IMG/VR virus record: IMGVR_UViG_2609459834_000014
Strand: one strand, 5' to 3'
Length of the DNA: 12,415 nucleotides
Source of the DNA: a virus
Lineage: Duplodnaviria; Heunggongvirae; Uroviricota; Caudoviricetes
Made by a program: the position numbers and the translations under genes. The first letter of the stretch is position 1; each line of letters opens with the position of its first letter. This document shows, one piece after another, positions 1,009 through 12,415 of the stretch. The notes beneath the pieces were generated by a model. That model searched no databases. It was not told where the DNA came from and worked only from the letters and a program-made list of their open reading frames with translations.

Positions 1009-1081
1009 GTCCTCTTAGTTAAATGGATATAACGAGCCCCTCCTAAGGGCTAATTGCAGGTTCGATTCCTGCAGGGGACAC
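1009..1081 (+). tRNA. argW: tRNA-Arg (anticodon CCT)
   Basis: Cloverleaf read by hand. Acceptor GTCCTCT (1009-1015) pairs with AGGGGAC (1073-1079); anticodon stem AGCCC/GGGCT flanks loop CTCCTAA with U33-CCT-A37; T-arm GCAGG-TTCGATT-CCTGC; discriminator A at 1080. The sequence then reads CTTT, so a full CCA is not encoded at this junction. Confidence 0.9.
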
Positions 1082-1255: not shown

Positions 1256-2542
1256 ATGAGTACAGATATGGCCATTAATGTGCTTTCCCCCAAACAGATA
1301 GAAAACGCCAAGCCGAAGACCAATGATTACAAACTTACCGATGGAGGGAGTTTGTATCTACTGGTACGAAAGACTGGTGGAAAATACTGGCGTATGAATT
1401 ATCGTTTTGATGGAAAACAAGTGACATTGGCATTAGGGGTCTACCCAGATGTCTCACTTGCAACAGCGCGGAAACGGCGTGATGAAGCCAGGCAACTACT
1501 AGCCGATGGTCGTGATCCTCGCGAAGCAAAGAAACCCAAAAAGGAAGACCCAATTTCCCCCACGTTCGAGAGTGTTGCCAGAGAGTGGCATAGTGGAACG
1601 ATGGGGCATCCTGAGTGGAAAGAGATCACCCGTAAAAAAATTCTCCGAGAAATGGAAAACCACCTCTTTCCTGCCATCGGTTCAAAGCCTATCGATACGC
1701 TCAAAACCCGTGACTTGATGCCGATGCTGGTTGAGATGACTGAGAAAGGAATTGGTGCCACAACGAGCCGGGTAAAAACCACTATGACGAGCATCTTCCG
1801 TTATGCCGTGCAACGTGGAATTGTCGATTACAACCCTGCCCACGATCTAAAAGGTGCAATTACGACCCCCAAAGTACGACATCGCCCCGCACTACCTCTC
1901 GAACGTTTACCTGAACTGTTAGCGAAAACGAGAAGTTACACGGGAAGACCATTGACTCGCCTAGCAGTTCTATTTTCCCTGCACACTTTTGTGCGATCCA
2001 GCGAACTACGACATGCCAGATGGGAGGAGATCGACATTGAAAATGGGCTATGGACGATACCAGGACAACGTGAAGAGATCGCAGGGGTTAAATTCTCAGA
2101 GCGGGGTGCAAAGATGGGGGCTGCTCATTATGTCCCGCTATCTAGTCAGGCTATCGGGGTACTGGAGGATATAAGGAAAATCAGTGGTGAATATCTGCTG
2201 GTTTTCCCCGGTGACAGCAACCCATATAAACCGATGAGCGAAAACACAGTTAATAAAGCACTGCGAACGATGGGTTACGACACTCAAAGTGATGTTTGCT
2301 TGCATGGGTTCAGGGCGATGGCCTGCTCTGCACTGACCGAATCAGGACTCTGGTCACGCGATGCAGTTGAACGGCAGATGAGTCACCAAGAAAGAAACGA
2401 AGTGCGGGCAGCATATGTGCATCTTGCGCAGCACATGCAGGAACGCCGCAGAATGATGCAATGGTGGTCTAATTATCTGGAACTAAATAAGGACGAATTT
2501 CATGCTCCTTATGACTTATCAGGTATTAACATTATCAATTAA
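1256..2542 (+). CDS. int: Tyrosine site-specific recombinase (P4-type integrase)
   Basis: The N-terminus (LSPKQIENAKPKTNDYKLTDGGSLYLLVRKTGGKYWRMNYRFDGKQ...LALGVYPDVSLATARKRRDEARQLLADG) matches the conserved P4-integrase arm-binding domain. The C-terminal catalytic region carries R...HGFR...Y-type residues (LHGFRAMACS, RAAYVH). Start is ambiguous: GTG 1208, ATG 1256 or ATG 1268, none with a strong Shine-Dalgarno. Stop at 2540-2542. Confidence 0.88.
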   Translation: MSTDMAINVLSPKQIENAKPKTNDYKLTDGGSLYLLVRKTGGKYWRMNYRFDGKQVTLALGVYPDVSLATARKRRDEARQLLADGRDPREAKKPKKEDPISPTFESVAREWHSGTMGHPEWKEITRKKILREMENHLFPAIGSKPIDTLKTRDLMPMLVEMTEKGIGATTSRVKTTMTSIFRYAVQRGIVDYNPAHDLKGAITTPKVRHRPALPLERLPELLAKTRSYTGRPLTRLAVLFSLHTFVRSSELRHARWEEIDIENGLWTIPGQREEIAGVKFSERGAKMGAAHYVPLSSQAIGVLEDIRKISGEYLLVFPGDSNPYKPMSENTVNKALRTMGYDTQSDVCLHGFRAMACSALTESGLWSRDAVERQMSHQERNEVRAAYVHLAQHMQERRRMMQWWSNYLELNKDEFHAPYDLSGINIIN

Positions 2543-2572
2543 ATTTTCTTATAATTTAAAACAGAGGTCATA

Positions 2573-3454
2573 ATGCAGCATTCAAAAGAGAATGAAACTA
2601 TATTCTTAGGAAATCTATGGATTGACAAAAAAATACCACCATTAGAATATTGTTCATTTGAACGCGCTTCAAGACTATTAGAATGCGAGATTGATGATTT
2701 ATTACACCTATACGAAATAGGCGCCTTTAATATCGCATTCAAGGCGGATGGACTTGCAGTTAGATTTAATGTTAATTTCCTCTATAAAAATCAGAAAATG
2801 GAAATTGACTTAATTCATCCCGTATTAACTAATCAATCACTAGAGATGGAATTTTCAACAATATGGTATGACCTTAAAGATGACTCCTTTGAACATTTTG
2901 AAAATGGGCTTCAAATTATAGGATTTGCCTGTGGTATTTGGTACGCCGATGATATGATAAGTGACATAAAAAATGGATTAGCTATAGATCCAGATTATGA
3001 ATTCAGGCTTAAACCGGTAAAAATACGAGATAATGTTTTGATGGCAACGGCCTCATATGAAGGAAATAAGGTCATTGATATTCCATTTGAAGATCTTCTT
3101 ATCATGCGAAGAGATTTAGAGTTAATATGGAAATCAGTAAAAACTGGAATTCCTATGCCAAGTTTACTTACGAAAAGAATTTCATCTGAACCTAAAATCC
3201 CCAAGCGATTAAATAACACTGCTGAGCATCATGCAAAAAATAGGGAGGGGTTATTAAATGCAGCCATATATATATTAGCAAAATACCCAAGCGAATGTCG
3301 TGGTGAAAGAAAAGAGATAAGTCCTGAAAAGTGGACTAACGCCATAATTAAACATTTAGGAGAGCTACCTCCAATATTTATCACTAATGAACAAGAAATC
3401 TTAAGAAAATTACGATTAGCGGTTAATCATGCGGGATTGAAACAAAAGGGGTAG
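2573..3454 (+). CDS. Hypothetical protein, 293 aa, AT-rich orphan cargo gene of unknown function
   Basis: ATG at 2573 preceded by AGAGGT (2562-2567) at 5-nt spacing. G+C is clearly low (about one third by eye) against the flanking integrase and alpA. I recognise no catalytic motif or family. Confidence 0.7.
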   Translation: MQHSKENETIFLGNLWIDKKIPPLEYCSFERASRLLECEIDDLLHLYEIGAFNIAFKADGLAVRFNVNFLYKNQKMEIDLIHPVLTNQSLEMEFSTIWYDLKDDSFEHFENGLQIIGFACGIWYADDMISDIKNGLAIDPDYEFRLKPVKIRDNVLMATASYEGNKVIDIPFEDLLIMRRDLELIWKSVKTGIPMPSLLTKRISSEPKIPKRLNNTAEHHAKNREGLLNAAIYILAKYPSECRGERKEISPEKWTNAIIKHLGELPPIFITNEQEILRKLRLAVNHAGLKQKG

Positions 3455-3491
3455 ACTGAAACAATCTACAGGTAGAGTTGATTACACTACC

Positions 3492-3548
3492 TTCACAGCA
3501 TTTTGATATCCCCATAGTATCTGCCGTGTTCATTACATAACACGGCAG
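3492..3548 (+). promoter_or_regulatory. Putative alpA promoter with a 10-bp perfect inverted repeat over the predicted start site and 5' UTR
   Basis: TTCACA (3492-3497), 17 bp, TAGTAT (3515-3520). Perfect inverted repeat CTGCCGTGTT (3521-3530) / AACACGGCAG (3539-3548) with 8-bp spacer CATTACAT, ending 8 bp before the alpA ATG. Confidence 0.35.
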
Positions 3549-3556
3549 GTAATTTC

Positions 3557-3772
3557 ATGACATTAAAAACTTATCCTATCACTGGACATGCCCGCCCACG
3601 AGCTACTGCTGACTTTTTGCAAATAAGTACGGTTACTCTCTGGCGCTGGGAAAAGAACAATCCTGAATTTCCCAAATCTATACGCATTTCAAAACGGGTA
3701 TCTGTTTACGATGCACAAGAAATTAGGCAGTGGGTTAAAGCTCAATCAGCAGGATTGGAGGAAGTAGTGTAA
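3557..3772 (+). CDS. alpA: AlpA-family phage transcriptional regulator (helix-turn-helix; excision/activation control)
   Basis: 71-aa ORF. The segment FLQISTVTLWRWEKNNPEFPKSIRISKRVSVYDAQEIRQWV matches the AlpA/Vis-type HTH pattern (x-T-hy-Y/W-x-W ... FPK ... V-x-W ... EI-x-W). Position right after the integrase module is typical. Confidence 0.8.
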   Translation: MTLKTYPITGHARPRATADFLQISTVTLWRWEKNNPEFPKSIRISKRVSVYDAQEIRQWVKAQSAGLEEVV

Positions 3773-3821
3773 TGACAATATTAACAAAGCTGGGGAGAAA
3801 AAAGCCTCCCCAACGTATTAA

Positions 3822-4016
3822 TCAATTCTTTGGTTCTAAACCTCGGCTTTGTAACTCTTTGCGTAGAATGCGCTTGATCCAAGCCGCTAGCGATTCATCG
3901 CCATCCTGCTGTTGTGCTTGTTCCATCAGTTCACGCAGTTCAGGGTCAAGTCGGAACTGGAATGGCGGATTCCCACGTCTTTCATTTTTGTGTGTTGACA
4001 CGTCAATTACACCCAT
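3822..4016 (-). CDS. Possible ribbon-helix-helix (CopG/Arc-like) small DNA-binding protein, 64 aa
   Basis: The translation FQFRLDPELRELMEQAQQQDGDESLAAWIKRILRKEL has the strand-helix-helix layout of RHH repressors. It is divergent from the downstream operon and next to a perfect palindrome. Weak points: no clear Shine-Dalgarno before its ATG (4014-4016 on the - strand), and it overlaps a low-complexity + strand ORF. Confidence 0.4.
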   Translation of the reverse strand: MGVIDVSTHKNERRGNPPFQFRLDPELRELMEQAQQQDGDESLAAWIKRILRKELQSRGLEPKN

Positions 4017-4049
4017 TGTAATGTATTTATGTGTAATGACACATTACAC
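3995..4049. promoter_or_regulatory. Strong rightward sigma70 promoter with an adjacent perfect palindromic operator
   Basis: TTGACA (3995-4000), 16 bp, TGTAAT (4017-4022) on the + strand. It is followed by the perfect inverted repeat GTGTAATG-ACA-CATTACAC (4031-4049); further GTAATG/CATTAC-like half-sites lie at 4003-4023. Located between the RHH-like ORF and the Icd-like-to-primase operon. Confidence 0.45.
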
Positions 4050-4132
4050 ACAGAAAAACAAAATAGCAACGCCCCGGAGTGTTTGCAGCACCACCGAGGC
4101 GTCTGACCAGCACGTTATATGAGGTAACGAAG

Positions 4133-4309
4133 ATGGCTAAACAGAAGTGTACCTGGTTATTTGCGGCGATCAACCGCAGTCAACGTAATGCCCGTCCGGT
4201 GATGTTAAGGATCACCGCAGATAACGAGCGATCAGCGCGGCGCAGACTTGCCCCGGACTATGTACTGAGCTTTGCCGGGCGCATTCCCTGCGGAGGTGAA
4301 CATGCGTAA
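4133..4309 (+). CDS. Small Icd-like (phage cell-division-inhibitor family) protein, 58 aa
   Basis: ATG at 4133 preceded by GAGG (4121-4124). The translation MAKQKCTWLFAAINRSQRNARPVMLRITADNERSARRRLAPDYVLSFAGRIPCGGEHA resembles, from memory, the short Icd-like proteins found in P4-like satellites. The ORF track extends it to an upstream GTG at 4079. Confidence 0.5.
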   Translation: MAKQKCTWLFAAINRSQRNARPVMLRITADNERSARRRLAPDYVLSFAGRIPCGGEHA

Positions 4310-4661
4310 TTATCCGCATCCCGGCGAACGCTGGCAGCATGAACGTGGCTGGACGGTCACGATTATCCGATTAATAGAAGCCTCGCCCTCTGTGGCGCTG
4401 GTTAATCCTGAATTCAGCTGTGAAGTGCTGATACGTCATGACAGCGACAACCAGCTTTCTTCCTGCCCTCTGGCATGGTTTGAACAGCGATATACGCGCC
4501 TGTTTGATGTACCGCTCTTTAAGCCTGCACCAGCTCCTGCAGGCGGTAGTGGTTCCGGCCCGCTGACACTGCATCCGTCTGTGCTATTTATCCGCTGGCG
4601 GGAGCGTAGCATATGGCGTTCTGCTGAGCCTGATGACGGTCACTATTCAAAGTTTCTCTGA
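4302..4661 (+). CDS. Hypothetical satellite protein, 119 aa
   Basis: ATG at 4302 preceded by GGAGG (4292-4296); overlaps the stop of the Icd-like ORF by 8 nt, suggesting translational coupling. High G+C like the island core. Contains a Gly/Pro/Ala-rich linker (PAPAPAGGSGSGP). Confidence 0.6.
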   Translation: MRNYPHPGERWQHERGWTVTIIRLIEASPSVALVNPEFSCEVLIRHDSDNQLSSCPLAWFEQRYTRLFDVPLFKPAPAPAGGSGSGPLTLHPSVLFIRWRERSIWRSAEPDDGHYSKFL

Positions 4662-4692
4662 CAAAACACCGCTGAAAACGGAGTAATCCACA

Positions 4693-4977
4693 ATGAATAT
4701 TTCAAACGGGCACAACGGTGCTCAGGGCCAGACTTTGCCTGAAAAACACAATACCGGTGCTTTTGCCTATGGGTTGTCAGAGGACGGTTTCGGAAAGCTG
4801 ACCCGCGCAAGAAATGCCTGCGACATGCTCCAGCTTCTCTTTTCTGAATACCCGTCTCAGGCCGGAGCACTGGACGCAGGCTGTGCGCCTGGTGTCGCCG
4901 CGCTGATGGAGTACCTGCGGGCAGATTTGACGGATATTGCGCACAGCTGTGCACTGATTGAAGGAGGTGCCAGATGA
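4693..4977 (+). CDS. Hypothetical satellite protein, 94 aa
   Basis: ATG at 4693 with GGAG at 4679-4682; same orientation and composition as its neighbours. Its size and position upstream of the primase recall P4 epsilon, but I see no sequence support for that. Confidence 0.55.
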   Translation: MNISNGHNGAQGQTLPEKHNTGAFAYGLSEDGFGKLTRARNACDMLQLLFSEYPSQAGALDAGCAPGVAALMEYLRADLTDIAHSCALIEGGAR

Positions 4978-5357
4978 ACCAGCCGCAGGTTTCCATTTTC
5001 CCGGCAGAAATGACCACCGCGCTTTACCGGCGGGCTATTGCTTCAGCATGGCGGCAGAAAATGCTGAACGAAACTGGCAATGATCAGTATGGTCCGCACA
5101 GCCTGACGGTGGAGCGTATTGAAATGGCCATTGCGCTGCATATCGAGTGCGCACTGATTAACGAGTACGGCGAAGCACAGGGCGCCGCTGCCGCGCTGGC
5201 ACTGCTAACTGACATGCTGGAGCCGTCACTGCTGACCGCGCCGCCGGTACTGACCGCGCGCGGTTGTGAAGTAATGGCGGAGATGTACCGCACGCTTCCG
5301 GCGGCCTTTGATGACTTCTGCAGTACCGGTGTGACGTTGTATCAGGGGGAAGTATGA
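4974..5357 (+). CDS. Hypothetical satellite protein, 127 aa
   Basis: ATG at 4974 preceded by GGAGGTG (4963-4969); 4-nt ATGA overlap with the preceding ORF, and its stop overlaps the primase start. Confidence 0.6.
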   Translation: MNQPQVSIFPAEMTTALYRRAIASAWRQKMLNETGNDQYGPHSLTVERIEMAIALHIECALINEYGEAQGAAAALALLTDMLEPSLLTAPPVLTARGCEVMAEMYRTLPAAFDDFCSTGVTLYQGEV

Positions 5358-8026
5358 CAATACAGACGGTTACGCAGATTTCAGCCGCCGCACGGGGGAA
5401 ATGGCCCGTTATTCTCCAGATGCTGCGTATTGATGTACCTGAAAACGGCAGGCACGGTCCCTGCCCGAAATGTGGGGGCAAGGATCGTTTTCGCCTTGAT
5501 GACCTTGACGGGCGCGGGACGTGGATCTGCAGCCAGTGTGGCAATGGTGACGGTCTGGATCTGGTTAAGCTCGTAACCGGTTACAGCGTCAGAAAGGCTG
5601 CGCAGGAGGTGGCGCAGGTGCTTAATGTGCCGGATGTGCAGGAACTGCCTGTTAAGCCTGCCAGACAAAAAGCCCCTAAACGCGACATGGGGCTTACCGT
5701 GGCGGCGCTGATGAAAGAGAGCCACACGGGAGAAAGCGCCTATCTGACAGGAAAAGGGTTCGCCGGATACCCGGCCTCTCTGACCGGAAGCGTGCAGCAT
5801 ATCAGCGGTAAGGATTTTCCTGCCGGTTCCCTGCTGTTACCACTCACGACCAACACCGGAGCCGTGACCGGTGCACAGCTTATCGCCCCGACGGGTGAAA
5901 AAAGCATACTGCCCGGCAGCACGATGAAAGGCGCGTTTGTGTCGCTCAGCCCGTTACCGTCTGAACCACCGGTACAGGTGGTGATTACCGAAGGTTACGC
6001 TACGGCGCTGACGGTAAGTCAGCTCACTGCCGGATGCGTAGTGGCTGCCATATCTGCGGGCAACCTGCCCAATGTGGCGCAGTCGCTGCGGGCACGCTGG
6101 CCTGAGGTAAAAATTATCATCGCCGGTGATAACGATTTTCAGGACGGAGGTGAGAATCCCGGCAGAGCCTTTGCTGAACGGGCGGCAAAAGCTGTTGGCG
6201 GCTGGATGACGCTGCCACCAGGAGAGATTAAGGCTGACTGGAATGACTTTCATCGGGAGCACGGTATTACCCGTGCCCGTGAAGCCTTTCGCAACGGTCT
6301 GGTACTGTGCGGGGAAGGCCGCACGCAACTGCCGCACGGGTTCCGTCTTACCCAGGAATATCTCTGGTATGAAAAGCAGGTACAGCGCAACGGTGAGACG
6401 GAGATCCAGAACGTCAAAATATGCAGCCCGCTGCGCGTGACGGCAATCACCTGCGATGCCGATGGCGGTAACTTCGGACGACTGCTGGAATGGGAAGATA
6501 CGTGGGGTGAGTGTCGCCGCTGGGCGATGCCGATGGAAATGCTGAGCGGCAGTGGTGAGGAACTGCGCCGGGTACTGCTGGTTAACGGGCTGTCTTATAT
6601 CAGCACCACCGGTGAGGCACGCGCACGCCTGATGGAATATATCTCACTGTGTAAACCGGAACGCCGCGTGACCTGCGTCAGTCGTACTGGCTGGCATGGT
6701 CAGGTTTACGTCCTGCAGGATGAGGTCAGCGGTGAAGGTGCAGAGGGTGTCATTCTCCAGACCACTTCCGTGCAGGGGCGTGATTTCCGCGTGTCGGGCA
6801 CAACAGAGGAATGGCGGGAGCATGTATCCCGCTACTGTACCGGCAACTCCCGCGTGGCATTTGCTGTCAGCCTGGCCTTTGCTGCACCACTGTTACGGCT
6901 GGTTGGTATGGACGGCGGCGGCTACCACCTCAAAGGGGAATCGACAGACGGTAAGACCACCACCATGAAAGCGGCAACCTCCGTCTGCGGCGGGCCTGAC
7001 TACTGGCAGACATGGCGGGCCACCGGCAACGCGCTGGAGGGATGCGCCAGCCGCCGCAACGATGCCGCCATGATGCTTGATGAGATCCGGGAAGTTGACG
7101 GACGCGAGGCAGGCAATATCGCCTACATGCTGGCAAACGGTCAGGGCAAGGGCCGTGCCGGTACGGACGGTGAGCTGCGTACCCGTAAGCAGTGGCGCCT
7201 GTTGTTCTTTTCAACTGGCGAGTTGTCTCTGACCGAACATGCGGCAAAGGCCGGTGAGCGTACTTTTGCCGGGATGGAAGTCAGGATGATCCAGATCCCC
7301 AGCGATTCCGGGAAGTTTGGCGTTTTTGAGGAGCTGCACGGCTTCGACAGCGGCAAGGCTCTGGCAGAGCATCTTGAATGGGCCACGTCCTGCTACTACG
7401 GTTCGCCGTTCCGGGAGTGGCTGAAAGCACTGACCGCTGATCTTAACGGACTAACGGCACAGGCAAAATCGCTGATGAAGGAATATGCTGCCGCCCTGAC
7501 TCCGAAAGATGCAGGCAATCAGGTGGGCCGGGCTGTGAACCGCTTTGCTCTGGTGGCGATGGCAGGTGAACTGGCAACCCGTCTGGGTATCACCGGCTGG
7601 CCTGAGGGTGAAGCACTGCGGGCAACCCGCGTCTGCCTGAACGCATGGCTGAAAGATCGCGGGCACACCGCCAATCAGGAAGATATCGCCGCACTGGAGC
7701 AGGTTCGCAGTTTCTTTACCGCGAATCAGTACAGCCGCTTTGCAGACTGGTATGACGAGCGCAACCGCCCCGGCAATATGGTGGGCTGGCGCAGGGTGGA
7801 GAAAGGCAGTACCGCGCAGGGCACGGAAGCTGTCACTACGTTCTATGTCATGCCGTCCGGCTGGAAAGAAATCTGCAGGGGATTTGACCCGCGCAAGGTG
7901 GCGCGTCTGTGCGCAGATCGTGGATACCTGCTGCCCTCCACTGATGGCAAACTCCAGACAACCATTCGCCCGCCAGAGATGAATCCCCGCAGGCTCTATG
8001 TCTTCAACAGCGAGGTGCCGGGTTAA
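5354..8026 (+). CDS. Primase-helicase (P4 alpha-like replication protein: zinc ribbon, TOPRIM primase, Walker-A NTPase)
   Basis: 890-aa ORF, ATG at 5354 after a GGGGGAAG tract. N-terminal Cys4 ribbon (CPKCGG...CSQCG). TOPRIM signature with a conserved Glu (VVITEGYATAL) and acidic DxD cluster (IIAGDNDFQD). Walker A GESTDGKTT further downstream. Followed immediately by an iteron array. Confidence 0.9.
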   Translation: MTIQTVTQISAAARGKWPVILQMLRIDVPENGRHGPCPKCGGKDRFRLDDLDGRGTWICSQCGNGDGLDLVKLVTGYSVRKAAQEVAQVLNVPDVQELPVKPARQKAPKRDMGLTVAALMKESHTGESAYLTGKGFAGYPASLTGSVQHISGKDFPAGSLLLPLTTNTGAVTGAQLIAPTGEKSILPGSTMKGAFVSLSPLPSEPPVQVVITEGYATALTVSQLTAGCVVAAISAGNLPNVAQSLRARWPEVKIIIAGDNDFQDGGENPGRAFAERAAKAVGGWMTLPPGEIKADWNDFHREHGITRAREAFRNGLVLCGEGRTQLPHGFRLTQEYLWYEKQVQRNGETEIQNVKICSPLRVTAITCDADGGNFGRLLEWEDTWGECRRWAMPMEMLSGSGEELRRVLLVNGLSYISTTGEARARLMEYISLCKPERRVTCVSRTGWHGQVYVLQDEVSGEGAEGVILQTTSVQGRDFRVSGTTEEWREHVSRYCTGNSRVAFAVSLAFAAPLLRLVGMDGGGYHLKGESTDGKTTTMKAATSVCGGPDYWQTWRATGNALEGCASRRNDAAMMLDEIREVDGREAGNIAYMLANGQGKGRAGTDGELRTRKQWRLLFFSTGELSLTEHAAKAGERTFAGMEVRMIQIPSDSGKFGVFEELHGFDSGKALAEHLEWATSCYYGSPFREWLKALTADLNGLTAQAKSLMKEYAAALTPKDAGNQVGRAVNRFALVAMAGELATRLGITGWPEGEALRATRVCLNAWLKDRGHTANQEDIAALEQVRSFFTANQYSRFADWYDERNRPGNMVGWRRVEKGSTAQGTEAVTTFYVMPSGWKEICRGFDPRKVARLCADRGYLLPSTDGKLQTTIRPPEMNPRRLYVFNSEVPG

Positions 8027-8426: not shown

Positions 8427-9170
8427 ATGAACAACACCGCAGTAAATAACAACCTTTCCACTTTTCCGGCTGTAACGCAGCGGGCACTGGAAACCATGAA
8501 CACAGCCAGAAACGCATGGCTTGAAGCACGTCGTCAGCAGAAAGCGGCAGCGGATAATATTGCGACAATCCGCCAGCGTCGCGCTGAAATGGAAGCCACG
8601 ACGAACACACTGAATGAGGAGTGGCGCACGCTGTTTCGTGAAAGTCAGGGCGTGGTCTCAAAGGAAATGAAAAAACTGCGCACGGAAATTGCGCTGGGAC
8701 GAGAAACGCTTGAGGATTTTGATGAGCTGCTGGCGGCTCAGGAAAGCGAAAATGCACTTTTGCCGCAGAAAGCTGCAGAATTAGCCGGAAAGTATATCCA
8801 CGCGCATAACATTCTTGTGGATATTCGCGCAAAACAAATCTGGGAGGATTTTATGCAGTCGCATGGAAAAGCGCTTATTCAGACGCTGAGCCTGCTTAAA
8901 TCCACAATGGGCCGGGAAGCCAGTGCCGTTGTGGGTGTGGTGAATTCAGTTAATGACCCGGACACAGTGCTGAAAGACTTTATTCATAAACATATCACCA
9001 GACCGGCTCTGGCTAACGATGCGATGCCTGAGCAGGACCCGGTGTTTAAACTGGCGGGAGTTGCCCCGGATTATGCGGCGCGTCTGGATTTCAGTAATCA
9101 ACTCTCTCCGGCAGCTATGCATAAAATTAAGGTTCGTCAGGAACTTGCTGAGAAGGAGAAAGCAGTATGA
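8427..9170 (+). CDS. Hypothetical satellite protein, 247 aa, helical and charge-rich
   Basis: ATG at 8427 with AGGAG (8417-8421) at 5-nt spacing. Composition rich in A/E/K/R/L suggests long helices. First gene of a three-gene co-directional unit that ends with the Ogr/Delta-like gene. Confidence 0.7.
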   Translation: MNNTAVNNNLSTFPAVTQRALETMNTARNAWLEARRQQKAAADNIATIRQRRAEMEATTNTLNEEWRTLFRESQGVVSKEMKKLRTEIALGRETLEDFDELLAAQESENALLPQKAAELAGKYIHAHNILVDIRAKQIWEDFMQSHGKALIQTLSLLKSTMGREASAVVGVVNSVNDPDTVLKDFIHKHITRPALANDAMPEQDPVFKLAGVAPDYAARLDFSNQLSPAAMHKIKVRQELAEKEKAV

Positions 9171-9718
9171 CGGCCCGAGGCACGCCTGACCAGGCACTTA
9201 CCAGTTTTCGGAATGCCCGTATTCTGTGGGCCGGACATAATGAGAGCCGAAAAGCCGTTGAACAACAGATAACATCTCTCCTCGCTGCCACAGAAAAACC
9301 AGCAGATTATGCCCGACAGCTCGAATTACTGCGGGAACGTCTGGATGTGCTGAAATGGCAAATTAACTGTGCTGCGCGCGAATGCATTTACTCGCAGCAT
9401 TTACTGATGGAGGCCTGCACAGAAGCCGCTCTCAGCAATTTTATGCAGGCGAATGGGGCAGCCCTGACATCTGCACTGGCTCCATTCCTGAAGGGGCGCG
9501 GAGGGGTTGACGTTGCGTCCCGTATATTACGCAGTGCTCTGGTTCGCCAGCTGGCAATAACACCGCCTGAAATTGCCGGGGATTATCGTGAGATCCTGGA
9601 TGAATCCGGTTTGATGCCTGACCCCGGGATGATTCGTGATTGCCAGGGTTCTTACACCCCGGCACAACATCTGCGTTTTCAGCAACGCCTGAATGACATT
9701 AACGATATACAGGAGTGA
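9167..9718 (+). CDS. Hypothetical satellite protein, 183 aa
   Basis: ATG at 9167 overlaps the upstream stop (ATGA); AGGAG at 9154-9158. Same composition as its neighbours. Confidence 0.65.
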   Translation: MTARGTPDQALTSFRNARILWAGHNESRKAVEQQITSLLAATEKPADYARQLELLRERLDVLKWQINCAARECIYSQHLLMEACTEAALSNFMQANGAALTSALAPFLKGRGGVDVASRILRSALVRQLAITPPEIAGDYREILDESGLMPDPGMIRDCQGSYTPAQHLRFQQRLNDINDIQE

Positions 9719-9723
9719 TATTA

Positions 9724-9996
9724 ATGGCACTTAAATGTCCGGAATGCGGTACAGTTGCACACGCCAGAACAGCAGCCTATGAAGCTCCGTCAGTTAAACG
9801 CTCGTGGTATCAGTGCCAGAATCTGGAATGTTCCTGCACATTTACGGCACTGGAGAGTGTGGATAAGATAATCATGAAACCCCGGCGCAATGAACAGCTA
9901 TCAGACAAAGCACAATCCCCGGAAAAACAACAGCAAACACTTAATCGCTATGGCTCCGCGTCAAAACTGTCAAGCCGTCAGCAGATTCCTGTCTGA
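9724..9996 (+). CDS. Ogr/Delta-family zinc-finger late-gene transcriptional activator
   Basis: ATG at 9724 with AGGAG (9711-9715) at 8-nt spacing. The N-terminus has the exact Ogr/Delta spacing Cys5-x2-Cys8-x22-Cys31-x4-Cys36 (MALKCPECG...YQCQNLEC) with a conserved HART-like tract (AHART). The GTG at 9715 in the ORF track lies inside the ribosome-binding site and is not the start. Confidence 0.8.
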   Translation: MALKCPECGTVAHARTAAYEAPSVKRSWYQCQNLECSCTFTALESVDKIIMKPRRNEQLSDKAQSPEKQQQTLNRYGSASKLSSRQQIPV

Positions 9997-10423: not shown

Positions 10424-12415
10424 ATGGCCATTCAAAAAAAACAAACAAAAAATTCTGAAAGAAGTATTAAAAGCCAGTTAGAAAAACTTACGGCTGAAAA
10501 AGCCATTTCCGAATATATTTGGAATGCTTTTGATGCTGAAGCCACAAATATTAATATTACAGTTATCCCAAATGGTTTAAGTGGGATATCTTCAATAGAA
10601 ATTATTGATGATGGAACTGGCATCGATTTTAATGAAGTCGATGAAACTTTCGGGCAGTTTTTAGATTCCAAGAAGAAAGCAAAACGAACGCCTGTCACAA
10701 GAGGACATAAAGGTAAGGGGCGGTTTTCATTCTGTAAATTCGCTGATAAAGCCGAATGGACTAGCTGGCGTAATGGAGAGAAATTTACGCTAACTATAGT
10801 TTCATCACATCTAAATGAATATGAGCATTCAGATTTATCCATGTGCTCTCATAAAAATTCTGGAACTAAGGTGGTCTTTAATCCTGTAACAATTACTGAA
10901 GATTATTTTAATTCAATAGTTATACCCTATTTGCAGAACGATATATCTTGGCTGTTGGTGGCCAAACCAAAATTAAAATTAAAAATAAACGGTCAATCTA
11001 TTAGCCCAATAGGATATGCTTCAACTTCAAATAATATTGAATTTGGAGAGGTCGATTTTAATTCGAAAACAGTTATATGGTCTAGTAAACCTGTAGTAGA
11101 AAAATCATATATATATTATTTAAATAATCAAGGTGATATTGTTTACAAAGAGTTTTCTGAGATGAACAAAAAAGGATTTGATTGTTCATCCTATGTCACA
11201 TCAAGTTGGTTTGATGATTTTTCTGAATCAAACGACTTGTTTAATGAATCGAAAAACAGTGTTGACTCAGATATTTTTAAATACATTAGTCTACATGTTA
11301 AAGGTAATTTAAGGGAAGAGTATAGAAAATATAAAAATAATGCGGCAGATCAACTCATTCAAAACTATTTAAATGAGGGTGTGTTTCCAGAATATAAAGG
11401 TGAGAATAGAATGCTCAATGAATTTAAAAGGAATCAACTCATTGAAACTATAAAGATAATTTATGAGGCCGAACCTCAAATTTTCTCCACACTAAACAAG
11501 AAACAAAAAAAAATCTTAATTAAACTATTAGATAGAATTGTTGAAACCAATAATTTATCCAGTCTCTTTGACATTTTTGAAGGTATAGTTTCCCTATCCG
11601 AAGATGAGGTTGATAAACTTTCATCTGTAATAAAAAGAAGTTCACTTTCTAATATTACGAGGACTTTGTCATTTATTAATGATAGACTGGATGTTATTGA
11701 TTATTTTAAAAAAATACTATATGAGAAAAAGAAAGAATCATATGAAGTAAAGCACATTCAAAAGAGCATAGAAAATAATTTATGGCTTTTTGGAGAGCAA
11801 TACACTCTAGTTGCATCAGAAGATGATAAGTTTGATAAAGCTCTTAGAAAGTATCTGGAGAAGACTAAAGGTTTTAACGAAGCACATTATAATAAGTATA
11901 GTGTACAGCATCCAGATAAAAATAAAGAAATGGATATATTTGCAGCACAAAAAATAAAGCGTTACACTGAAAATAATGAAGAATATTTTCATTGCATTGT
12001 GATTGAATTAAAGAAACCAAGTATAAAACTCGGTGATGAAGAACTCGCACAAATAAAGTTATATAAAAATATAATATCTGCGACTGATGAATTTAAAGAC
12101 GATAATACAAAATGGGATTTTATTTTAGTGGGAAATGATATGTCTAATAGCAATATCACTGCTGCAAATTTATCATCAGATCTAGAAACGAATAAAATAC
12201 ATGGTGAGTTTGGCTTGGTTCAAAAAACAACAAATATGAAAATTTACGTCAAAACGTGGAAGCAAATTTTAAATGAGTATGATCTTAGATATAACGACCT
12301 GATCGATAAGCTTAAGTTGAAAGAGTTAGAAATTGCAGAAGATATGGGGCCTGATGAACTCACGGCAAAAATTTTAGAAAAAACGGCAAGACTTCCGACT
12401 TCGATACAGGCTTAG
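10424..12415 (+). CDS. GHKL (Bergerat-fold) ATPase-domain protein with a C-terminal PD-(D/E)xK-like signature; candidate anti-phage or accessory effector of unknown family
   Basis: 663-aa ORF, ATG at 10424 and stop at 12413-12415, which is the last codon of the window. About 30% G+C by eye. All three GHKL motifs are in order: N-box E30-x3-N34-x2-D37-A38 (EYIWNAFDA, from nt 10511), G1 box D62-D-G-T-G66 (nt 10607-10621), G2 box G94-HK-G97-K-G99 (nt 10703-10720). C-terminal D504 ... E528-L-K530 (EMDIF-x-IVIELKKP, nt 11933-12013) fits a PD-(D/E)xK core. Family and function are not recognised. Confidence 0.75.
   Translation: MAIQKKQTKNSERSIKSQLEKLTAEKAISEYIWNAFDAEATNINITVIPNGLSGISSIEIIDDGTGIDFNEVDETFGQFLDSKKKAKRTPVTRGHKGKGRFSFCKFADKAEWTSWRNGEKFTLTIVSSHLNEYEHSDLSMCSHKNSGTKVVFNPVTITEDYFNSIVIPYLQNDISWLLVAKPKLKLKINGQSISPIGYASTSNNIEFGEVDFNSKTVIWSSKPVVEKSYIYYLNNQGDIVYKEFSEMNKKGFDCSSYVTSSWFDDFSESNDLFNESKNSVDSDIFKYISLHVKGNLREEYRKYKNNAADQLIQNYLNEGVFPEYKGENRMLNEFKRNQLIETIKIIYEAEPQIFSTLNKKQKKILIKLLDRIVETNNLSSLFDIFEGIVSLSEDEVDKLSSVIKRSSLSNITRTLSFINDRLDVIDYFKKILYEKKKESYEVKHIQKSIENNLWLFGEQYTLVASEDDKFDKALRKYLEKTKGFNEAHYNKYSVQHPDKNKEMDIFAAQKIKRYTENNEEYFHCIVIELKKPSIKLGDEELAQIKLYKNIISATDEFKDDNTKWDFILVGNDMSNSNITAANLSSDLETNKIHGEFGLVQKTTNMKIYVKTWKQILNEYDLRYNDLIDKLKLKELEIAEDMGPDELTAKILEKTARLPTSIQA

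Follow-up and report, generated by a model that had tools for sequence, protein, structure and literature searches.

Gene X, a fast-evolving gene with a fixed place between int and alpA in P4-like satellites and related islands, as a possible third component of the integration zone

In Gram-negative phage-inducible chromosomal islands (PICIs), no master repressor is known, and alpA is turned on by helper phages along an unknown route (PMC6092414). The integration zone, as published, lists int and AlpA alone (PMC10111431). The hotspots named in P4-like satellites run from the psu-delta-sid operon to int and from the primase to att, and the int-alpA interval is not among them (PMC13586616, PMC8628076); none of these four papers describes a conserved gene or hotspot between int and alpA. 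Here, we consider such a gene. The stretch of DNA analyzed, referred to below as the window, comprises the 12,415 nucleotides (nt) of IMG/VR virus record IMGVR_UViG_2609459834_000014 and contains a P4-like phage satellite, integrated at argW, of which it covers the left two-thirds. Between its integrase gene and alpA lies an AT-rich open reading frame (ORF), for which we use the name X. It belongs to a widespread and uncharacterised protein family that occupies the same place in distantly related elements, and it may be a third, fast-evolving part of the int/alpA zone. The gene and its immediate surroundings are as follows.

2573..3454, plus strand: gene X, member of an uncharacterised integrase-linked family; 293 amino acids (aa), ATG start
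2563..2567, plus strand: Shine-Dalgarno sequence AGAGG of X, read from the sequence, 5 nt before the ATG
1268..2542, plus strand: int, P4-type tyrosine integrase, co-oriented with X across a 30-bp gap
3557..3772, plus strand: alpA, Vis/AlpA-type regulator (PF05930, E 1.6e-7), the downstream boundary of the int-alpA slot

X is a real protein under purifying selection. At its base composition, the chance of 293 stop-free codons is about 2e-11, and the other five frames contain 8-38 stops; the ratio of nonsynonymous to synonymous substitution (dN/dS) is 0.25 in comparison with an allele of 98.6% identity and 0.09 in comparison with the Pantoea orthologue. An earlier sequence-only reading of the window had described an ORF of 293 aa with a good ribosome-binding site and a G+C content of about one third, all of which is confirmed (AGAGG; G+C 0.338). 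It had also placed the ORF between genes of higher G+C, which is true, although alpA (0.421) is only moderately higher; the corresponding values for int and the primase are 0.481 and 0.591. Codon usage is not host-like, which agrees with that reading (G+C at third codon positions, GC3, 0.259). The reading had recognised no domain, and the searches agree: X has no match in Pfam, NCBIfam, PHROGs or PADLOC.

The same reading took X for an orphan inserted between two core genes. The surroundings of its homologues tell a different story. Synteny was sampled in 16 distinct elements with readable surroundings; two are present solely as contig-end fragments. A P4-type integrase with Arm-DNA-bind_3, Phage_int_M and Phage_integrase domains, the same three that are found in the integrase of the window, lies directly upstream of the X homologue and in the same orientation in all 16, and an AlpA gene follows in 15. 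Conservation at one position in all relatives, which the sequence-only reading had named as evidence against its own proposal, is thus very nearly what is seen. The integrases concerned are often just 25-30% identical to that of the window, and the elements differ in integration site (argW, thrW, beside yicC and others), in primase (DUF927, D5_N, or none, in two cases) and in what lies downstream, some being P4-like satellites with sid/psu/delta and others carrying Ash or AntA with a D5_N or DUF927 primase. In Tolumonas osonensis (L021, 4740-12918), int-X-alpA heads an island with BrxR and a type I-E CRISPR-Cas system (Cas3, Cse1), and no primase was seen within the 6 kb inspected; one X-bearing island carries HNH and NucS-like genes. 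Because the gap between int and X is short or the genes overlap (-4 to 111 bp, with an ATGA overlap in L015), X is likely to be co-transcribed with int. The co-orientation noted in the earlier reading stands, and expression from the integrated element, which it proposed, is made plausible by these gaps.

The family itself is large. Identical copies of the protein are encoded on 960 contigs, which come from Escherichia, Salmonella and Klebsiella, and 66 of 5426 complete E. coli genomes carry one. An exhaustive phmmer search of 1.84 billion representatives returned homologues in 195 clusters at 50% identity with E<=1e-3 (45 with E<=1e-10), nearly all of 260-350 aa, where a word-indexed search had given 14 clusters only; "orphan" is therefore a description that has to be dropped. 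Within the Enterobacterales, members are found in Escherichia, Salmonella, Klebsiella, Citrobacter, Enterobacter, Yersinia, Serratia, Pantoea, Pectobacterium and Brenneria, and within the Aeromonadales in Tolumonas; all named members are annotated as hypothetical. When 145 members were compared with Pfam, no consistent match was obtained, with HTH_17 matched by just one of the 145 (E 0.005), and the 5027 PADLOC models gave a single weak match (E 4.6e-4). Seventeen of the 145 match phrog_7144, which carries no annotation (best E 8.7e-44); the X of the window does not. Searching 50,697 phage genomes with tblastn failed to find the family. It is specific to islands and satellites, given its absence from those genomes and, one weak match apart, from PADLOC. 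A search of a library of papers for the accession WP_001164794 found no mention. A profile search with the C-terminal domain alone, for fusions to known domains, returned short proteins only, and the two of these that were examined come from ordinary int-X-alpA loci broken up by frameshifts, in metagenome assemblies that are error-prone.

A second view of the locus comes from satellites that share their core with the window. With the segment from alpA to the primase (window 3500-8026) as query, coverage of at least 80% was found in 328 complete E. coli genomes, most of which match only from the icd-like gene through the primase, at ~99% identity; a core complete through sid/psu/delta was confirmed in individually fetched loci only. 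Four left ends are joined to this core. One has the argW integrase and X (66 genomes); another has a 77% identical argW integrase and a 324-aa family member (10 genomes; hidden Markov model (HMM) E 8e-61), which is 24% identical to X by BLASTP and 27% by global alignment; a third has a thrW integrase and a 274-aa family member (66 genomes; E 1e-29). The occupant of the fourth is unrelated and is weighed below. All are AT-rich and co-oriented with int, and the occupant switches together with the integrase type. The int-alpA interval is thus a slot, filled mostly by one family. The sequence-only reading had proposed a cargo slot, and this survives insofar as content differs among ~99% identical cores; the notion of free cargo, or of a free orphan insertion, does not, since a single protein family supplies three of the four occupants.

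Position is conserved far better than sequence. In three elements (L002, L006 and L012), the integrases are 86-90% identical and the X proteins 31-61%. Between the window and the sister element L010, Int is 77% and AlpA 88% identical and X only 27%, and nucleotide identity runs at ~70% through int and ~55-60% through X before jumping to 84-96% at ~3500, immediately ahead of the alpA promoter. The last 80 residues of the window X, by contrast, share 60-61% identity with their counterparts in L002, L006 and L012, elements with integrases 26-28% identical to that of the window. Since the identities of X disagree with those of Int and AlpA, and since its C-terminal domain is shared across distant integrases, X is a mosaic, with exchange of its N-terminal, middle and C-terminal parts from element to element. 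Its base composition, on the other hand, hardly varies: G+C is 0.34-0.39 in all homologues measured, GC3 is 0.25-0.30 in the five scored, beside neighbors of GC3 0.59-0.84, and the AT-richness is the same whether the adjoining primase has a GC3 of 0.56 or 0.84. As this composition is common to all homologues despite that of their neighbors, and as synonymous sites between them are saturated, the AT-richness of X is being maintained and is not a leftover of recent transfer. Low G+C as a mark of recent acquisition is thereby ruled out, and the use that the earlier reading made of it as a sign of insertion falls with it, this being a family trait even beside a primase of GC3 0.84.

That primase belongs to an element in a Pantoea metagenome-assembled genome (L011), where the primase (9777-12449) has a GC3 of 0.84, X (7001-7882) 0.28, int 0.39 and alpA 0.34. 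Here, drift to the base composition of the host is resisted throughout the integration zone, and most strongly by X.

An AlphaFold2 model of X, built from a 145-sequence alignment, is confident overall (mean predicted local distance difference test score (pLDDT) 86.3; predicted template modeling score (pTM) 0.68). The strand-helix-helix-wing of its N terminus spans residues ~15-55 and is followed by a beta-rich region (55-178), a helix (179-191), a linker (193-214) and a four-helix C-terminal domain (215-292). On the gene, the domains are placed as follows.

2609..2737, plus strand: N-terminal signature domain, codons 13-55, PLEYC..RAA.LL.CE..DL.HW..IGAI.L, net charge -4
2738..3148, plus strand: middle domain, codons 56-192, variable, acidic and beta-rich
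3149..3214, plus strand: low-confidence linker, codons 193-214, pLDDT 57-75
3215..3451, plus strand: C-terminal domain, codons 215-293, small, basic and four-helix, AEHHAKNRE...YPSECRGERKEISPEKW

Conservation across the family is concentrated in the N-terminal domain (C38 94%, D42 97%, A32 97%, H45 90%). The middle domain ranges from 117 to 231 aa and is conserved only at G121/W123 and L175/I177. The N-terminal domain is negatively charged in 77% of members, the median charge of the middle domain is -8, and the C-terminal domain is mildly basic; overall, X has a charge of -5, with a family median of -8. In the model, the N-terminal domain is a small strand-helix-helix-wing that resembles the winged helices of MerR or excisionase. 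Sequence does not repeat this resemblance. No MerR-type winged helix-turn-helix (HTH) was matched in Pfam or NCBIfam, the N-domain profile matches no MerR protein among PDB sequences, and MerR traits are missing, in that the domain is acidic and a beta-rich domain stands in place of the coiled coil or dimerisation helix. The possibility that it is an AlpA homologue was not supported (hhalign probability 2.7% against 12 AlpA sequences; X without a Pfam match). Because the domain is acidic and lacks the basic residues that MerR and Xis use on DNA, classic operator binding by this domain is doubtful, and a protein-binding role, by analogy with CbpM, would be at least as likely.

The structure prediction that the sequence-only reading had called for thus yielded a confident model, though no solved structure matches the whole protein. 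Foldseek searches of PDB and BFVD with the model returned nothing at E<=0.001, and the top matches, which were TBP-like, were disregarded for their TM-scores of 0.11-0.16. Profile searches of PDB sequences with the whole family, the C-terminal domain and the N-terminal domain gave chance or His-tag matches only, and the C-terminal domain has no sequence match in PDB or Pfam. No enzymatic domain is recognisable in X; nuclease, NTPase, TIR, SIR2 and membrane effector are all missing.

Signals that could govern transcription of the zone flank the gene on both sides.

2526..2555, plus strand: sigma-70-like promoter candidate in the 3' end of int, TTAACA-18-TATAAT, 11/12, a consensus match only
3451..3492, plus strand: two hairpins straddling and following the X stop codon
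3492..3520, plus strand: alpA promoter-like site, TTCACA-17-TAGTAT, 9/12
3518..3551, plus strand: alpA leader hairpin with a 13-bp stem, -19.7 kcal/mol, z -5.55, the 3' arm ending 5 nt before the ATG

The overall count of such sites in the region is not above the shuffled expectation. The hairpins after X probably keep transcription of int and X from running on into alpA; the counterpart in L002 is a canonical terminator, AGGTACTG-8-CAGTACCT followed by TTTTCATT. The 3' arm of the alpA leader hairpin covers the GGCAGG/AGG ribosome-binding region, and equivalent hairpins of unrelated stem sequence are present in at least five lineages.

L011, 7945-7982: alpA leader hairpin, z -7.3
L002, ~9016-9053: alpA leader hairpin, z within the range -3.2 to -2.0 that covers L002, L006 and L019
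L006, ~8965-9003: alpA leader hairpin, z within the same range
L019: alpA leader hairpin, z within the same range
L020, ~2611-2641: alpA leader hairpin, z -4.2
L021, ~6949-6985: alpA leader hairpin, z -4.5
L023: alpA leader hairpin, weak, z -1.25

Loops vary from 8 to 23 nt, and the distance to the ATG is held at 3-9 nt. Because loop length varies while this distance is fixed, and because the stems are unrelated, the arrangement suggests control of alpA translation at the level of RNA rather than a protein operator. The idea that the palindrome before alpA is an operator for X was rejected, as it is identical in the window and L010 while the N-terminal domains of their X proteins are 39% identical.

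Taken together, the invariant gene order, the combination of a conserved module with variable parts, the lack of an effector domain, the restriction to islands and satellites, and the gap in the literature lead us to favor, tentatively and with less than even confidence, a reading of X as a non-essential adaptor or regulator, co-transcribed with int, that forms the third and fast-evolving part of the int/alpA zone and is not free cargo. According to this proposal, X would be produced in small amounts alongside Int in the integrated state. Its N-terminal domain would dock on a partner common to all elements, for example Int, AlpA, a nucleoid protein of the host or the DNA that controls int and alpA, and the signal recognised by its variable middle domain would be specific to the element or to a phage; a conserved N-terminal domain and a variable middle fit such a combination of conserved partner and variable specificity. 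In this way, X could modulate the timing of the AlpA-driven program of excision and replication, in a role akin to that of Stl in the Staphylococcus aureus pathogenicity islands (SaPIs), though it would tune the switch and not be an indispensable lock. The AT-rich DNA of X would probably also hold the zone under H-NS-type silencing.

A number of observations weigh against this proposal. The phylogeny of X is incongruent with those of Int and AlpA, which argues against tight co-evolution with either, and the alpA leader hairpin co-varies with alpA and not with X. The fourth left end, a leuX integrase with an unrelated AT-rich 212-aa protein, is found in 205 genomes, and in CP4-57 the intA-alpA interval holds yfjH, which is unrelated, AT-rich and on the opposite strand. 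Finally, in E. coli CE0021a (L030, 9001-10659), an IS1B insertion sequence splits X at about codon 91, leaving int, alpA, primase, sid, psu and delta intact and the satellite still at argW. That this satellite is intact and integrated despite the insertion argues, from one natural disruption, against any strict necessity of X for quiescence.

The closest competitor, a serious one and in our estimation only a little less probable, is that X is a conflict gene (single-gene defence, superinfection exclusion, anti-defence or helper manipulation) in a small int-alpA hotspot, expressed from the integrated element. Its fixed position would then need no functional link, the 3' end of int and the alpA promoter serving as recombination anchors for cassette exchange. 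The hypervariable and mosaic character of X, so incongruent with its flanks in both comparisons of Int with X given above, is what such an exchange would leave, as are the sharp change in nucleotide identity at ~3500 and the four occupants, one from an unrelated family, beside ~99% identical cores. AT-richness and non-host codon usage point the same way, as do the dispensability of X for maintenance of the CE0021a element and its overall acidity, which is often a property of inhibitors of DNA-binding proteins. There is precedent, too, in the accessory genes that adjoin int in SaPIs (PMC6092414) and the defence genes near int in PICIs and P2 (PMC13586616). Set against this are the lack of any PADLOC match for X, with just one marginal match in the family, and of any recognisable effector, and a family signature that is a small fold of regulatory type. 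Moreover, the hotspots already known are home to many unrelated systems; here a single family predominates, even in very distant elements, and the interval is not listed in the surveys of P4 hotspots cited above.

Two further explanations we consider less likely than either of these. X might be an accessory factor in recombination, an architectural or directionality co-factor acting with Int and AlpA at attP, attL or attR. The invariable place directly after a P4-type integrase, with probable co-transcription, the resemblance of the N-terminal fold to excisionase and MerR-type winged helices, and the basic C-terminal domain would all suit such a factor, yet the X proteins that accompany near-identical integrases at one and the same att site are 31-61% identical, the N-terminal domain is acidic, and sister satellites work with the unrelated 212-aa protein, so that we regard it as improbable; the normally integrated element with its IS1-disrupted X also speaks against it, though that case is silent on the efficiency of excision. 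More improbable still is that the AT-rich DNA is itself what is selected, as a nucleation block for H-NS that silences int and alpA, with the protein secondary. The uniform composition of the homologues measured, whatever their host or neighbors, and the AT-richness of unrelated occupants (G+C 0.31 for the 212-aa gene, 0.37 for yfjH) are what this would predict; a mere spacer, however, would need no 293-codon ORF, let alone one with dN/dS of 0.09-0.25, motifs conserved over 195 clusters and a confidently predicted fold.

In the boldest reading, the family could be the missing sensor through which infection by a helper phage acts on the AlpA switch, both in Gram-negative satellites and in islands with a P4-type integrase. 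A protein of the phage or of the host would be bound by the middle domain, and the N-terminal domain would pass the signal on to the region that controls int and alpA, perhaps by lifting H-NS-type silencing or the block posed by the alpA leader hairpin. We think this unlikely as it stands, and its consequence would be that X alleles set which helpers induce which satellite. The zone is described as int and alpA only in Gram-negative phage satellites and in many tRNA-linked defence islands; a widespread family that has no Pfam model and a fixed place there is an easily testable candidate for a factor that controls satellite induction or makes it specific. Were X a conflict gene instead, it would be a new single-gene factor with a small hotspot of its own. 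The order int-X-alpA can be used as a marker in annotating such islands, and it corrects the description of X as an orphan insertion.

The remaining features of the window place the gene in its element.

1009..1081, plus strand: tRNA-Arg(CCT), the argW integration site, from tRNA/Rfam detection
between alpA and the primase: small genes, among them an Icd-like gene and a DUF5375 gene
5354..8026: TOPRIM/DUF927 primase
8427..9996: sid-like, psu and ogr/delta-like genes
10424..12415, running past the window end: AT-rich cargo ORF after the delta-like gene

In E. coli strain 504211, the genes from int to delta are 98-100% identical in amino acid sequence to those of the window, and X is a RefSeq hypothetical protein. 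The canonical P4 order is int, hotspot, psu/delta/sid, alpA, epsilon, alpha (PMC8628076). That of the window (int, alpA, primase, sid, psu, delta, cargo) differs from it, as does the TOPRIM/DUF927 type of its primase from P4 alpha (D5_N/Pox_D5). An Rfam scan of the window gave the tRNA as the sole match, and a P4-type immunity RNA was not detected. The cargo ORF (G+C ~0.28, >663 aa) matches phrog_6203 (E 6.5e-79), with weak GHKL/MutL-N-like matches and a weak match to the PADLOC model REase_II (E 1.3e-7), and occupies the position expected for a P4 defence hotspot; in the sister satellites L014-L016, that position holds retron St85 or ABC-three-component systems. Coding is ambiguous directly 3' of alpA, where a 116-aa ORF on the plus strand (3772-4122) competes with a 64-aa RefSeq protein on the minus strand (3822-4016; annotated as hypothetical or YlcI/YnfO family), and the segment 3772-4122 is also found on E. 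coli plasmids at 78-86% identity. The Sid-like protein (phrog_6165; 8427-9170) itself matches the Psu Pfam model (E 1.8e-9) and adjoins the true Psu (9167-9718). Sid and Psu are reportedly homologous, with which the match is consistent. The sister elements L010 and L016 are without a separate psu gene. X is also a target of IS1, in CE0021a and again in ETEC1739 (H47), where both X and the element are truncated, and in MB51 (L009) a graveyard of IS1, IS30 and IS3 lies directly after the integrase.

How, then, does X compare with systems already described? The 212-aa protein and YfjH of CP4-57 share its situation, both being AT-rich, uncharacterised and placed between a P4-type integrase and alpA. 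Neither is detectably homologous to X, and yfjH lies on the opposite strand. YfjH was rejected as a relative at E 0.026 and ~0 bits against the family HMM. The last 55 residues of the 212-aa protein align in register with the C terminus of the X family, but not significantly (8 bits), and profile-profile comparison gave no confirmation of kinship between YfjH's counterpart and X (hhalign probability 0.2%). The 212-aa protein (L014/L016, 4324-4967, leuX-type) forms a conserved family of its own, with 23 clusters across Enterobacterales. The defence hotspots of P4-like satellites are alike in holding AT-rich genes that differ between near-identical cores, as at 10424 onwards in the window; they lie between psu/delta/sid and int and between primase and att, not between int and alpA, and hold many unrelated systems, not one dominant family that matches no defence model. 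AlpA, P4 Vis and excisionase (PF05930, HTH_17) offer a strand-helix-helix-wing in the same zone, with a sequence pattern that aligns in register with X, but X has four times their size, two additional domains, and helices that are acidic and not basic. CbpM and other protein-binding proteins of MerR fold differ in their cbpAM operon context and share no sequence similarity with X, which lacks the MerR dimerisation helix.

The most suggestive parallel is with SaPI Stl and Rpr of the Gram-positive PICIs. These are likewise encoded beside int and expressed when the element is integrated, and they too are extremely diverse among otherwise similar elements, pairing a conserved small N-terminal module with a variable region, which in Stl senses different helper-phage proteins. 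The differences are real. There is no sequence or profile similarity, Stl is divergent from the xis/rep operon while X adjoins int but is co-directional with alpA and the primase, Stl has a basic, DNA-binding HTH of XRE type where the N-terminal domain of X is acidic and MerR/Xis-like by fold only, and loss of X, in the IS1 case, brought no visible destabilisation. The hypervariable middle domain and mosaic alleles of X nevertheless give it the allelic diversity that characterises the sensing region of Stl and Rpr. None of the known families examined could claim X as a clear member, and the papers cited above describe no conserved gene between int and alpA. Its function as we infer it would place it within a known kind, the regulatory and accessory proteins of satellite integration modules.

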